Source: an uncultured Candidatus Saccharibacteria bacterium | Lineage (GTDB): Bacteria; Patescibacteriota; Minisyncoccia; Phycocordibacterales; UBA5272 | DNA length: 28,419 nt | Reading direction: 5' to 3' | Assembly: GCA_964648875.1 (NCBI GenBank) | Contig: CAZYMY010000001.1 | Coordinates: 8,302 to 36,720 of the forward strand | Shown: positions 6,606 to 28,419 of the stretch, piece by piece | Layout: every line of letters begins with the position of its first letter | How positions within the stretch are numbered: the first letter of the stretch is position 1 | Program-made: the position numbers and the translations under genes | Notes under the pieces: generated by a model | Seen by the model: the letters and a program-made list of their open reading frames with translations, nothing else | What the model was told of the DNA's origin: nothing | The model's database searches: none

Positions 6606-6711
6606 TGTATTAACACTAAGGGTTGCTAAGAATTATTTTTTCTGATTATCTGATTTTATTTAGTGTTTTATTGCTCTTTTATTAGAGTGCTCGATTGTAA
6701 ATTAATATTAT

Positions 6712-7329
6712 ATGCAAGATGAAGAATTAAAAAACGAAAATTTATTAGAAGAAAATGAAGATATAGAAAGTGATGATGTGATTTTTGAAGAATTGAATGC
6801 TGAAGGAGAGGTTATGAGTGAAAAAGAAAAACAAAAAATAGATAAAAATAAATTAAAAGAAAAATTTGAAGAAAAAATAGAAAGATTAGAAAAAGAAAGA
6901 GACGAATATCTTTCTGGTTGGCAAAGAGTGCAAGCTGATTATAAAAATCGTGAGCGTGAGATAGAAGAATATAAAAAAGATATTATAAAATTTGCAAATG
7001 CTAATTTTATAAAAGATTTACTTCCAGTTCTTGATGGATATGATATGGCTCGCAGCAATAAAGAAATGTGGGAGTCAGTAGAGGCAAATTGGAGAACAGG
7101 AATAGAATATTTATTTTCTCAATTATTAAAAATCTTGGAAAATAATGGAGTACAAATTTTTGGTGATATAGGTGATAAATACAATACTTCTTTACATGAA
7201 GCTGTGGAGACAGTAGATGTTGAAGAAAAAGAAAAAAATGATACAATTATAAATGTATTACAGAAAGGATATAAAATTGGCGATAAGCTACTCAGGGCGG
7301 CAAGAGTAAAAGTCGGACATTATAAATAA
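6712..7329 (+). CDS. grpE: Nucleotide exchange factor GrpE
   Basis: RVQADYKNRERE, DLLPVLD, LHEAV, VLQKGYKIGDKLLRAARVKV; lies upstream of dnaK. Confidence 0.97.
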   Translation: MQDEELKNENLLEENEDIESDDVIFEELNAEGEVMSEKEKQKIDKNKLKEKFEEKIERLEKERDEYLSGWQRVQADYKNREREIEEYKKDIIKFANANFIKDLLPVLDGYDMARSNKEMWESVEANWRTGIEYLFSQLLKILENNGVQIFGDIGDKYNTSLHEAVETVDVEEKEKNDTIINVLQKGYKIGDKLLRAARVKVGHYK

Positions 7330-24170: not shown

Positions 24171-24197
24171 TATAAATTAAGAATCAGTATCTAAATT

Positions 24198-24256
24198 TTA
24201 AAAATCATCGGGGATGTCTATTTTTGGCATTTCAAAATCACCAAATTCATTTTTTT
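24198..24256 (-). repeat. Displaced copy of the dnaB 3' end (att-like direct repeat, copy 1)
   Basis: 56/59 identical to 25111..25169; still reads KNEFGDFEMPKIDIPDDF*. Confidence 0.92.
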
Positions 24257-24285
24257 AAATAACAAAAAATTAGATAATTTTATAC

Positions 24286-25082: not shown

Positions 25083-25110
25083 GCCTCTACGAAAGTAGGG
25101 GTTTCTTTTT
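25083..25110 (+). terminator. Intrinsic terminator
   Basis: GCCTCTAC-gaaa-GTAGGGGT, then TTCTTTTT abutting the dnaB stop. Confidence 0.75.
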
Positions 25111-25169
25111 TTAAAAATCATCTGGTATGTCAATTTTTGGCATTTCAAAATCACCAAATTCATTTTTTT
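25111..25169 (-). repeat. dnaB 3' end (direct repeat, copy 2)
   Basis: Partner of 24198..24256 at a 913-bp offset. Confidence 0.92.
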
Positions 25170-26607
25170 CAATAGATAGAAATGATGTCTTTTTATTATC
25201 AAAGTAAAGCTCTACAAGACCTGTAGGACCATTTCTATGTTTTTCTATTAATATTTCTACAATATTTTTTCTTTCACTTTTTTCATCATGTTTCTCTTTA
25301 TCATCTCTATGTATAAACATCACAATGTCAGCATCTTGCTCTATAGATCCTGAGTCACGAAGATCTGATAGGCGAGGCCTGCCTCCACGAGCTTCTACAG
25401 CACGAGAAAGCTGGGAAAGCGCTATCACAGGTACATCAAATTCTTTTGCCAATCCTTTGAGTGATCTAGATATTTCAGTCACTTGATTTACCATATTTTC
25501 ATATACTCTTGATGTGCCCATTAATTGCAAATAGTCTACTACTACAAGACCAACTGGTTTATCATGATTTAATTTTCGAAGCACACTTCTCATATTCATC
25601 ACAGTATTTGCAGGTTTATCATCAATAAAAATAGGCGCTTGCATGAGTTTATGCATACCTTCTTGAAGTCTTTCTATTTCTTCTTCCATATTTAATTTTC
25701 CAGTACGAAGTTTCCATCCATCTACTTGTGCTTCTGCAGATAGCATTCTATCTACTAGCTGTTGTTTACTCATTTCAAGAGAAAATACTACTGTTGGTAT
25801 ATTTAATTTTACTCCTGCATGACGCGCTATATCAAGAGCAAAAGATGTTTTACCTACAGATGGACGAGCAGCGAGTATTATGAGGTCAGACTTTTGAAAT
25901 CCAGAAAGTTTATTATCAAGATCTTTGAATCCACTAGACACACCTCTCACTTCATTTTGATTTTCAGCTAAATGTATAAAGCGAGAAATTGTCTCATCTC
26001 CCATATCTTTCATAGATACTACTTCACTTTTATTATTTTCATTTGAAGTTATTTCAAAAATCTTTTTTTCAGCTTGCTCTAAAATATTTTCAAGTTCTTC
26101 TTCTTCTCTAAAAGCTATTTCTCCAATATGACTACCAGCTATTATGAGTTTTCTTAAAGTAGATTTTTTCTTTACTATTTCAGCATAATAAATAATATTC
26201 GCAGCAGATCCCACAAGTCCAAGTAAAGAAGAAAGATAATCTGTACCACCAATTTGTTCTAAATCTTTTTTTGCACGCAATTTTGCAGATACAGTCAAAA
26301 GATCTACAGGCTCCTTTCTATTTATAAGTTCTACAATAGTATCAAAAATAATTTTATGTTTTTCAGAATAAAAATCATTTCTGTTTATTATATGTGCTAT
26401 TTCAAAAAAAGAATCTGGTACTAATAGTAGTGAACCAAGCAATGCTTTTTCTGTTTCAAGATCTTGTGGGGGAATGCGAAGTGAAGAAAGCTCATCAAAA
26501 GGTGAGGGGATATTTTTATTTTGAAAATTATTTTTAGAAAAATCATTTCTGTTTTTCTTTCTAGTACTCTGTTCTTCTTGTTTAGCAAAATCTTGTGATG
26601 TTAACAT
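25111..26607 (-). CDS. dnaB: Replicative DNA helicase
   Basis: PPQDLETEKALLGS, Walker A ARPSVGKT, VVVDYLQL, SQLSRAVE, LRDSGSIEQDAD, KHRNGPTG; no intein. Confidence 0.98.
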   Translation of the reverse strand: MLTSQDFAKQEEQSTRKKNRNDFSKNNFQNKNIPSPFDELSSLRIPPQDLETEKALLGSLLLVPDSFFEIAHIINRNDFYSEKHKIIFDTIVELINRKEPVDLLTVSAKLRAKKDLEQIGGTDYLSSLLGLVGSAANIIYYAEIVKKKSTLRKLIIAGSHIGEIAFREEEELENILEQAEKKIFEITSNENNKSEVVSMKDMGDETISRFIHLAENQNEVRGVSSGFKDLDNKLSGFQKSDLIILAARPSVGKTSFALDIARHAGVKLNIPTVVFSLEMSKQQLVDRMLSAEAQVDGWKLRTGKLNMEEEIERLQEGMHKLMQAPIFIDDKPANTVMNMRSVLRKLNHDKPVGLVVVDYLQLMGTSRVYENMVNQVTEISRSLKGLAKEFDVPVIALSQLSRAVEARGGRPRLSDLRDSGSIEQDADIVMFIHRDDKEKHDEKSERKNIVEILIEKHRNGPTGLVELYFDNKKTSFLSIEKNEFGDFEMPKIDIPDDF

Positions 26608-26828: not shown

Positions 26829-27407
26829 ATGGAAAAATTAAAAAAAATCTGGTCTTGGATTTTGAGTCATAAAATCTGGACTTTAATTATTATTTTTGCA
26901 ATCCTCTTTGGAAGTGTCGGATATAAATCCGACACAGTTTCAGTCTCTCTTTTTGGTAGAGATACCAAAGGTGAAGCAATCGCATTGCTGCCTGTGTATA
27001 CAGAGGCAGCTAATATTTATGGTTTCTTAAGTGCGATTAATTGCACCGCGACAGAAAGAAATTTAGTATCAGTTTTTGGAGTTGCAGTTGGAAAGGCAAA
27101 AAAAAATATTATTTCTGTTATTGGTATTTCTATCGGAAAGGCCAGTGAAAAAATTGTCTCCTTTATTGGTATTTCTATCGGAGATGCGGGTGAAGACATT
27201 CTTTCCGGATTTGGTGTCTCAATTGGAAAGGCTAAAAAAGATATATACTCTGGAGTAGGCATCGCTGTTGGTAAAGCTGATAATAAAATTGAGTCACTTC
27301 TTGGTTTGGCCGTTGGAAATTCTATTCGTTTGAAAGGTTTAGTTGCAGTCAGGGCCGATCCTTGGCCAGACTGTGTATCCATTTTTTGGATACCAATTAA
27401 AAAATAA
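26829..27407 (+). CDS. Membrane-anchored or exported protein with 15-residue Gly-rich repeats (putative beta-solenoid)
   Basis: N-terminal hydrophobic helix; six repeats of the type KAxxxIxSxxGISIG. Confidence 0.82.
   Translation: MEKLKKIWSWILSHKIWTLIIIFAILFGSVGYKSDTVSVSLFGRDTKGEAIALLPVYTEAANIYGFLSAINCTATERNLVSVFGVAVGKAKKNIISVIGISIGKASEKIVSFIGISIGDAGEDILSGFGVSIGKAKKDIYSGVGIAVGKADNKIESLLGLAVGNSIRLKGLVAVRADPWPDCVSIFWIPIKK
27048..27317 (+). repeat. Six tandem 45-bp (15-aa) coding repeats
   Basis: ATERNLVSVFGVAVG / KAKKNIISVIGISIG / KASEKIVSFIGISIG / DAGEDILSGFGVSIG / KAKKDIYSGVGIAVG / KADNKIESLLGLAVG; ATTGGTATTTCTATCGGA recurs at 45-bp spacing. Confidence 0.85.
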
Positions 27408-27493: not shown

Positions 27494-28419
27494 TTATATT
27501 CTATCAAGTCCTAAGCCGAGATATTTATCCATTTTTAATATTAAAATATATTTTTCATCAGCATTTATTTTTTTATCATTTATTATAGACCAAAGAGTAG
27601 CAAGAGCTACACTTGTATTCAAATCATCATTCATAGCAGATATAAATTTGTCTAGATAATTTTTAACCCCTTCAGTCTCGCTTTGCTCGCCAGCTTCCCC
27701 GTGGGAAGCAACACCTTCGTCTGGAGTATTTGCATTTATTCCCCCTTCGGGGGCTAGGGGGACTGTATTTGCATTTTCTTCCTCTCCTTCCGAGAGGGCT
27801 CCAGTGAGGTCAGATTTTATTTTGACTGTTTGTTTCAAAAGTTTTTGATATGCATTGTCGGCTGCCTCTAGTGAATCCCAAGAAAATTTTAATTCTTTTC
27901 TATAATGTGTCATGAGTAATAAATATTTATAAGACAGAGGATTTATATTTTTTTCCTTTAAACTATTTAATCTCAAAAATTCTCCATCACTTTTACTCAT
28001 TTTCCCTTTATCAGCATTTAAAAAATTCACATGCATCCAATAATTTACAAATTTGGTATTTTGCATTTCCTCCCTTTCCTTTGGAAAGGGGCTGGGGGAT
28101 AGGACTGTATTTGTATTTTCTCCCTCTCCTTCCGAGAGGGCTCCGGTGAGGTCGGGCATTGAACATTCACTTTGTGCTATTTCATTTGTATGATGTACAG
28201 GAAGTAAATCTATTCCACCTGTATGTATATCTATATGATCGCTAAGCACAGCGCGAATCATAGCGCTACACTCAATATGCCAGCCAGGGAATCCAATACC
28301 CCATGGACTTTCCCATTCCATTTGTCTTCTACCCTCTCCTTTGGTGAGGGACAGGGAGGGGGTTGGACTAAATTTCCATAAAGCAAAATCTGTTTTATTT
28401 TTCTTTTTATTATTTTCAT
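27494..28419 (-). CDS. cysS: Cysteine--tRNA ligase, 3' part (5' end outside the window), with three in-frame insertions
   Basis: The frame is open to the window edge: KKKNKTDFALWKFSP...RQMEWESPWGIGFPGWHIECSAM, DIHTGGIDLLPVHHTNEIAQSE, KMSKS, AMNDDLNT. Confidence 0.95.
   Translation of the reverse strand, partial: ENNKKKNKTDFALWKFSPTPSLSLTKGEGRRQMEWESPWGIGFPGWHIECSAMIRAVLSDHIDIHTGGIDLLPVHHTNEIAQSECSMPDLTGALSEGEGENTNTVLSPSPFPKEREEMQNTKFVNYWMHVNFLNADKGKMSKSDGEFLRLNSLKEKNINPLSYKYLLLMTHYRKELKFSWDSLEAADNAYQKLLKQTVKIKSDLTGALSEGEEENANTVPLAPEGGINANTPDEGVASHGEAGEQSETEGVKNYLDKFISAMNDDLNTSVALATLWSIINDKKINADEKYILILKMDKYLGLGLDRI
27666..27710. repeat. In-frame REP-like element E6 in cysS
   Basis: ACCCCTTCAGTCTCGCTTTGCTCGCCA followed by the perfect hairpin GCTTCCC-cgt-GGGAAGC; encodes ASHGEAGEQSETEGV. 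Confidence 0.7.
27741..27761. repeat. In-frame REP-like element E5 in cysS
   Basis: CCCCC-ttc-GGGGG plus CTAGGGGG; encodes PLAPEGG. Confidence 0.7.
27780..27811. repeat. In-frame REP-like element E4 in cysS
   Basis: TCCTCTC-cttcc-GAGAGGG plus CTCCAGTGAGGTC; part of a 52-bp direct repeat (27760-27811 vs 28102-28153, 49/52 identical). Confidence 0.85.
28072..28103. repeat. In-frame REP-like element E2 in cysS
   Basis: Perfect CCCTTTCC-ttt-GGAAAGGG plus GCTGGGGGATAGG (19/32 G+C); encodes LSPSPFPKERE. Confidence 0.85.
28122..28153. repeat. In-frame REP-like element E3 in cysS
   Basis: CCCTCTC-cttcc-GAGAGGG plus CTCCGGTGAGGTC; encodes DLTGALSEGEG. Confidence 0.85.
28332..28366. repeat. In-frame REP-like element E1 in cysS
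   Basis: CCCTCTCC-ttt-GGTGAGGG plus ACAGGGAGGGGGTTGG; encodes PTPSLSLTKGEG. Confidence 0.8.

Follow-up and report, generated by a model that had tools for sequence, protein, structure and literature searches.

GC-rich palindromic units inserted in frame in the cysS gene of a Paceibacteria genome are very probably copies of a family of small mobile elements

The DNA analyzed here is a 28,419-nucleotide (nt) stretch of contig CAZYMY010000001.1 (C1 below), which we call the window. It ends in the 3' part of cysS, the gene for cysteine--tRNA ligase (CysRS), which lies on the minus strand and carries short GC-rich palindromic units at three sites. The host genome (G000) belongs to the Paceibacteria, within the Candidate Phyla Radiation (CPR), and its assembly amounts to 470,687 bp in 67 contigs, with 85% completeness and 27% G+C. 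The cysS inserts contain 55% G+C, compared with 29% in the remainder of the gene. A first-pass annotation of the window had described six hairpins at three sites, termed A, B and C, all keeping the reading frame; the six hairpins indeed lie exactly where it had placed them, and the minus-strand frame runs uninterrupted through all of them over 307 amino acids (aa). The gene and its inserts, with the evidence for each, are as follows.

27494 to 28417, minus strand: 3' part of cysS (cysteine--tRNA ligase), 307 codons; open frame and PF01406/PF09334 homologues
27661 to 27710, plus strand: site C E6-type element, with leader ACCCCTTCAGTC... and hairpin GCTTCCC-cgt-GGGAAGC at 27693-27709; a copy lies in trmD
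27727 to 27769, plus strand: site C type III unit, with hairpin CCCCC-ttc-GGGGG at 27741-27753 and tail CTAGGGGGA, read in cysS as ...VPLAPEGGIN...; unit alignment
27767 to 27813, plus strand: site C type I unit, with hairpin CCTCTC-cttcc-GAGAGG at 27781-27797 and tail GCTCCAGTGAGGTCAG, read in cysS as DLTGALSEGEEE; unit alignment and exact Logan contig 27620-27810
28058 to 28106, plus strand: site B type II unit, with hairpin CCCTTTCC-ttt-GGAAAGGG at 28072-28090 and tail GCTGGGGGATAGGACT, read in cysS as LSPSPFPKEREE; unit alignment
28108 to 28156, plus strand: site B type I unit, with hairpin CCCTCTC-cttcc-GAGAGGG at 28122-28140 and tail CTCCGGTGAGGTCGG, read in cysS as DLTGALSEGEGE; unit alignment and exact Logan contig 28088-28287
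28318 to 28366, plus strand: site A degenerate type I unit, with hairpin CCCTCTCC-ttt-GGTGAGGG at 28332-28350 (one mismatch) and tail ACAGGGAGGGGG, read as TPSLSLTKGEG; exact Logan contig 28259-28388

Site C is thus a composite of an E6-type element, a type III unit and a type I unit, and it shares with site B a 52-nt block of 94% identity. The type II plus type I composite of site B recurs in intergenic arrays on contigs C4 and C27 (86-89% identity), a second E6-type copy lies inside trmD on contig C62 (88% identity over 50 nt), and the CCCCC-ttc-GGGGG hairpin of type III is found at ~17 loci of the genome. All five units whose orientation is defined by the tail point in the same direction, antisense to the gene, and the E6-type element has the orientation of its only other copy, in agreement with the common orientation reported before.

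The window stops where contig C1 stops. The 5' 183 codons of cysS were found where contig C21 ends; a 55-nt overlap of C21 with C1 yields a joined protein of 490 aa. The N-terminal half, which the first-pass annotation had been unable to see, contains no insert, and the insertion sites therefore number three in total. C21 breaks off precisely at the border of the site A element, and comparison of its end (G000:C21:~6680-7307) with window positions 28363-28419 places the assembly break at the outer edge of that element. Further contigs begin or finish inside units (C5:29, C26:4), and recG is apparently split between C32 and C6; the presence of units at all these contig ends indicates that the repeats fragment the assembly. 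The fragmented metagenome assembly, with 67 contigs that often break at units, might raise the suspicion of an assembly chimera, or the inserts might be native low-complexity loops that only appear repeated. We give these explanations practically no weight, because Logan contigs cross the junctions with 0 differences (27620-27810, 27781-27896, 28088-28287, 28125-28346 and 28259-28388) in two wastewater and two fish-metagenome runs from two studies, one run possibly being the source sample, and because separate assemblies from other genera and families contain this family too. As for native loops, the copies share nucleotide identity at synonymous positions, lie in both orientations and occur also in non-coding arrays.

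The motifs WHIEC, HHTNE and KMSKS, which had been described as untouched, are intact in the translation, and the Zn ligands (WHIEC, HxxxE) and KMSKS of the class I core are invariant across our CysRS alignments; the PDB matches include 3sp1 and 1li5. At the C-terminus (window 27494-27640), the protein of G000 and nearly all close relatives ends just after the helical bundle, and CysRS of P0073 and of the same-order genome G040 run ~55 residues longer. The short C-terminus is therefore clade-wide and not a truncation in G000.

All three inserts are missing from the CysRS of 10 same-genus genomes (414-438 aa) and from 12 database relatives whose source names read Paceibacterota/Parcubacteria and which are 51-76% identical with gap columns counted; none of the congeners compared has a hairpin at sites A to C. 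By codon alignment, site A has gained a net 8 codons, site B 30 and site C ~39. Solved CysRS structures (3sp1, 1li5/1u0b) align as three blocks and pass over sites B and C. We mapped the sites on an AlphaFold model of an insert-free full-length relative, P0002 (predicted local distance difference test score [pLDDT], 79; predicted template modeling score [pTM], 0.84). In this model, site A corresponds to coil after a strand (residues 205-209), site B to coil between helix 252-264 and strand 273-276, and site C to coil between helices 329-349 and 359-373. The cysS inserts are thus predicted to occupy loops, in line with the loop peptides that the first-pass annotation had proposed.

The units belong to a dispersed family. 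Perfect hairpins with a pyrimidine-only 5' arm number 67 in G000, as opposed to 1.35 +/- 1.1 in shuffled genomes, which excludes a chance origin, and ~55 oriented units with a common grammar of leader, loop and tail could be placed at 39 sites, bearing out the idea of non-autonomous dispersed palindromic repeats resembling repetitive extragenic palindromes (REPs), miniature transposable elements with inverted repeats (MITEs) or Rickettsia palindromic elements (RPEs). The basic unit of ~40-50 nt consists of an AT-rich leader (~TGTATTTnCATTTTCT), a hairpin and a G-run tail, YWGGGG; the hairpin has a perfect stem of 5-9 bp, whose 5' arm is C-rich and whose other arm is G-rich, closed by a TTN loop. 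Type I has the stem CCCTCTCC and the tail end TGAGGTC, type II the stem CCCTTTCC and the tail end ATAGGACT, type III the stem CCCCC and the tail end GGA, and type IV the stem CCCCTCC and the tail end AGGTC. At least six stem variants exist, almost all perfectly paired, so that the hairpin itself is the conserved feature, its sequence varying by subfamily. Units occur singly, in head-to-tail chains in which the tail of one abuts the leader of the next (as at cysS sites B and C), and in head-to-head doublets of ~57-66 nt, of type IV/I or III/III, which have terminal inverted repeats CTGACCTC...GAGGTC(AG) that single units lack; the doublets resemble REPINs, that is, inverted REP doublets, or double-hairpin elements. 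In a further type III variant, the loop of the CCCCC/GGGGG stem holds a 35-nt GC-rich insert (TTGCGCCATACGCTGRRGCTYCGGCGGCACGCGGTC), as if one hairpin element had landed within another's loop. This variant lies at the following positions of G000.

C27:2256-2330: type III nested variant, 35-nt loop insert
C4:1688-1749: type III nested variant, 35-nt loop insert
C9:2808-2864: type III nested variant, 35-nt loop insert
C32:4109-4206: type III nested variant, 35-nt loop insert

Within the genome, 27 of the 39 sites (69%) lie in frame within open reading frames (ORFs) of at least 150 aa, in 22 housekeeping genes, and the other 12 are intergenic or in short spurious ORFs created by the arrays themselves; the neighbors of intergenic arrays are ordinary genes, namely, rplE/recG, ftsK, tsaE and a transketolase-like gene. 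The host genes are the following.

Aminoacyl-tRNA synthetases: cysS, ileS, pheT, a class-I synthetase gene and a Lys/Asp-type synthetase gene
tRNA- and rRNA-related genes: tgt, trmD, ksgA, CCA-adding enzyme and pth
Polymerase genes: dnaE, polA and holB
Repair and helicase genes: uvrA, uvrB, uvrC, recG and a PIF1-like helicase
Remaining hosts: tatD, sufB/D, phosphoketolase and one unannotated ORF

Per base, sites are ~3 times denser between genes than within them (12 sites in 12% of the DNA versus 27 in 88%), as expected from purifying selection on random insertion. With three sites and six hairpins, cysS is the most loaded gene of the assembly, and the first-pass annotation had proposed that this one essential synthetase is repeatedly targeted, perhaps as a homing target or through hairpins that would form in the mRNA and control it. 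The probability of three sites in cysS is 2.8e-4 per gene and becomes ~0.14 after allowing for ~500 genes, which means that 0.14 genes with at least three sites are expected; the excess is notable without being evidence of targeting. Units reside in intergenic arrays and in 21 further genes as well, which makes cysS a heavily hit host among others and not a special target, and the lack of hairpins at its sites in congeners speaks against a conserved regulatory role. The inserted segments do fold in the mRNA sense, but their fold energy is only 1.6-2.5 standard deviations below that of same-composition shuffles, and an Rfam scan returned no family at or above the gathering score. A cysS-specific homing or mRNA-structure device is thus very improbable, and the targeting part of the earlier proposal is not upheld. 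Six sites also fall inside 6.4 kb of contig C2 (tgt-uvrB-uvrA), and local clustering may be a general property of the family.

Each in-gene copy keeps the frame and is free of stops, and we saw no gene of G000 that was split or frameshifted by a unit. The choice of phase is strongly biased. Type III units in ORFs are all read in a single phase per orientation (13/13; FTPPSGxGG in sense, PLTPEGG in antisense), with three stop-free frames available in sense and two in antisense. Antisense type IV units give LTSPxPSQGGE in 6/7 cases, sense type I units give NPLLGRGQGEV in 5/6, and antisense type I units give DLTxALSxGEG-like peptides in 4/4. Only translation of the inserts would lead one to expect such a preference for small, flexible and polar peptides. 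From frame preservation and this frame bias, we infer that the inserts are translated as loop peptides rich in Pro, Ser, Thr, Gly and Glu, and that the enzymes probably tolerate them. The inserts might instead stay untranslated, either through removal from the RNA or because the ribosome skips them, as with the 'byp' elements of Magnusiomyces or the gap of T4 gene 60; Lang et al. are said to have described, in 2014, related GC-rich mobile inserts that are bypassed in one yeast mitochondrion. The preference for a hydrophilic phase in spite of other open frames argues, if indirectly, against both, and so do the in-frame, stop-free state of all in-gene copies and the integrity of the host genes; we hold excision or bypass to be most unlikely.

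The spread of the units appears to be recent. The inserts of uvrA (two sites), uvrB (two sites), pheT, tgt and ileS are missing from 5 congeners, and among the type IV/I doublets of tgt, uvrB and the class-I synthetase gene and an intergenic copy on C48, the differences amount to only 0-2 nt and one 3-nt indel, whereas third-codon positions of uvrA are only ~60% identical between G000 and congeners. Congeners carry in-frame units elsewhere, namely, in pheT (G006) and in an ELP3-like gene (G009); the strict type I tail pattern is found in 2/14 congeners, as single copies only. The MAFFT alignment of 40 units is not structure-aware, and therefore other genomes were surveyed with an IUPAC stem/loop/tail pattern and not with a covariance model. 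The pattern covers types I, II and IV and similar stems, leaving aside type III and E6, so that its counts in other genomes are lower bounds. It matched in 10/96 genomes of the taxonomic family (4/8 genera) and in 5/250 other genomes of the order, while a reversed control pattern had 0 matches in the 251 genomes of the order survey and the 96 of the family survey. Copies per genome reach 22 in G000, 19 in G269, 13 in G026 and 11 in G061, and the distribution is patchy, with bursts. At 10 of the 11 other-genus loci inspected, the unit lies in frame within a long ORF. A reading of the units as DNA uptake sequences was rejected, as one per 8.5 kb is too sparse, their presence in the genus is patchy and they arrive as 40-90-nt insertions.

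In architecture, the closest known system is REP/REPIN, whose units are mobilized by REP-associated tyrosine transposases (RAYTs) (PMC3337134), with GTAG/CGTC-tagged REPs as a described form (PMC3733652). According to this model, the units would be REPs moved as inverted doublets by an HUH/Y1 transposase that recognizes the single-stranded hairpin. The unit size, the shortness and GC richness of the hairpin, its conserved linear flank, the many copies and the coexistence of singlets with inverted, head-to-head doublets all speak for it, and a full 149-aa Y1 gene occurs, within their genera, only in the burst genomes G026 and G061. However, GTAG/CGTC, the tag of REPs (PMC3733652), is absent next to the stem, where unit alignments give the leader ...ATTTTCT and the tail YWGGGG..., and 69% of sites are intragenic in contrast to the extragenic REPs. 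Moreover, no Y1 gene was found in any of the 15 genomes of the genus (G000, 85% complete, and 14 congeners), four of which carry units, and none of the Y1 genes of seven carrier genomes (G026, G061, G269, G206, G050, G224 and G284) has units beside it; those of the burst genomes G026, G061 and G269 are flanked by different hairpins of the type of IS200-like ends or by none. Since 59% of the genomes in the order possess Y1, its co-occurrence with units is uninformative. The cognate RAYT, the tag and the extragenic location are thus lacking, the candidate Y1/RAYT association was rejected, and mobilization of this kind is unlikely. The motif family proved to be dispersed over coding and intergenic DNA, and neither the DUF559/Vsr-like nor the HUH/RAYT gene that the first-pass annotation had envisaged was found in G000. 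In two genera (G026:C79, L086; G061:C63, L087), we also observed a near-identical IS200-like element with the 149-aa Y1 transposase and the end ...TCGCTACATCC-CCRRGC-TWAC-GCCGKGGGG-TATT...; this near-identity suggests a recent horizontal transfer of the IS between Paceibacteria genera.

In behavior, the units are closest to RPE-1 to RPE-10 of Rickettsia (Ogata et al. 2000, as summarized in PMC10969869). As far as that summary describes them, RPEs are likewise a dispersed palindromic family of a small AT-rich genome; many of its copies sit in frame, in a preferred phase, in unrelated housekeeping genes at positions compatible with the fold, and it has no known transposase. They differ, by the same account, in being about 100-150 bp long and not markedly GC-rich, whereas our units of 40-50 nt and doublets of 57-66 nt have at least 55% G+C, are modular and chained, and live in Patescibacteria; the comparison concerns behavior, and kinship of sequence is not expected. 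In composition and modular merging, the nearest analogues are found in AT-rich mitochondrial genomes as GC clusters and double-hairpin elements, namely, yeast GC42 (PMC4478555), sponge RHE (PMC2800124) and, as cited in PMC4478555, the double-hairpin elements of Allomyces. Common to both are GC-rich palindromes in a very AT-rich genome, conserved stems with variable loops, merging and shuffling into composites, and the lack of a known dedicated enzyme. Mitochondrial GC clusters occasionally reside in frame in coding sequence (var1). They are organellar and mostly intergenic, unlike the units of this bacterial genome, most of whose sites are in protein-coding genes, and the AG target of GC42 has no counterpart, since the compared sites show no constant AG flank. 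Coxiella burnetii intragenic MITEs such as QMITE1 (PMC5896051) and other bacterial MITEs are also small non-autonomous repeats that fuse with host proteins in frame or supply them with additional peptides. A MITE has well-defined inverted repeats at its termini, is flanked by target-site duplications and can usually be traced to a parent insertion sequence (IS); here, the terminal inverted repeats are present in doublets and absent in single units, and the duplications and the parent IS were not found. Our literature search returned no description of such elements in CPR/Patescibacteria.

Based on the above-described results, we consider it highly probable that the cysS inserts belong to a family of small non-autonomous mobile elements, GC-rich and palindromic, whose copies have recently increased in number in this Paceibacteria lineage, presumably mobilized in trans by some enzyme or repair pathway. 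Insertion would occur anywhere in the genome, and in-gene copies would persist only if their length is a multiple of 3, the host frame stays stop-free and the site is a surface loop; persisting copies would be transcribed and probably translated as loop peptides, and cysS would be a gene hit three times in tolerant loops.

Several observations weigh against this interpretation. No target-site duplication is visible at 9 sites, where the relatives are 70-87% protein-identical and the boundaries uncertain by a few bases. Several inserts seemingly replace 1-5 host codons, unlike classic cut-and-paste MITEs. No same-strain empty-site allele was found in the contigs of four runs, and the Logan contigs lacking site B, which have 17-21 other letters there, come from diverged relatives. 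The predicted model of the 307-aa CysRS fragment of G000 is poor (mean pLDDT, 55) and served for the flanks of site C only. Among transposase and nuclease families, PF01797 (Y1/RAYT/IS200 TnpA), PF04480 (DUF559) and PF01548 (IS110) gave no match in G000, a search confined to these three families and to an 85% complete genome, and a Pfam search of ten ORFs beside intergenic arrays revealed nothing nuclease- or transposase-like, with 4/10 having no Pfam match.

The lack of a transposase and of target-site duplications would suit a spread without any transposase, in which template switching or microhomology would place hairpin copies at breaks or stalled forks, where they replace a few host bases. 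Type III doublets point in this direction at uvrA site 2 and in pheT and ileS, where they seemingly replace ~4 purine-rich host codons, as do the local clusters (six sites in 6.4 kb on C2, three in cysS), the tail-to-leader chaining and the yeast GC42 clusters, which likewise have no known enzyme (PMC4478555); at cysS sites A and B, 2-3 host codons are seemingly replaced. However, the compared species are diverged and the sites lie in variable loops, so that codon replacement is only suggestive and may reflect alignment effects or later decay; the 66-nt type IV/I doublet at uvrB site 2 resembles a clean insertion, and patchiness across families fits better an element with its own horizontally transferred machinery. 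A transposase-free spread is therefore a possibility that we rate as distinctly weaker than a family of mobile elements. More speculatively, and with some doubt, one may imagine an undescribed Paceibacteria hairpin superfamily that spreads without a transposase via template switching or break repair, overwrites purine-rich loop codons and is a main source of the lineage-specific loop insertions in CPR housekeeping proteins; if this were true, the superfamily would keep supplying minimal genomes with new translated sequence.

A few other features of the window and genome were recorded. A 192-aa ORF adjoining cysS (window 26829-27407, plus strand) has an N-terminal hydrophobic segment followed by ~7 tandem repeats of ~19 aa, (V/I)xGIS(I/V)GKAxxxI, and its G+C content of 35-40% is above that of the surroundings. 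An 88-nt direct repeat (window 24196-24283 and 25109-25196; 85% identity) spans the 3' end of dnaB (25111) with its second copy. The isoleucyl-tRNA synthetase IleRS (L014, G000:C5:139-3717) contains a histidine-phosphatase domain, PF00300, in mid-protein (residues ~542-705, E = 2e-32); its orthologues in five congeners are of similar length (1160-1192 aa), and the domain is seemingly conserved in the genus. PheT (L013, G000:C4:13288-15735) has an NlpC/P60-like domain, PF00877 (residues ~358-459, E = 1e-7), between B3/4 and B5.

What is new here is the unit grammar, the 39-site census, the controlled surveys of family and order and the negative RAYT test in the genus. In practical terms, metagenome assemblies break at the units, which also make proteins look more divergent than they are and could act as strain markers. 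Their mobilizer would be either an undiscovered trans-acting enzyme or the bacterial counterpart of the transposase-free mechanism suspected for mitochondrial GC clusters. The genomes of CPR/Patescibacteria are tiny and almost all of their genes essential, yet their synthetases, polymerases and repair enzymes tolerate selfish hairpin DNA. Provided that the inserts are translated, the family would be a natural experiment in how conserved proteins gain new loop sequence, and it would account for some of the odd insertions in CPR proteins.

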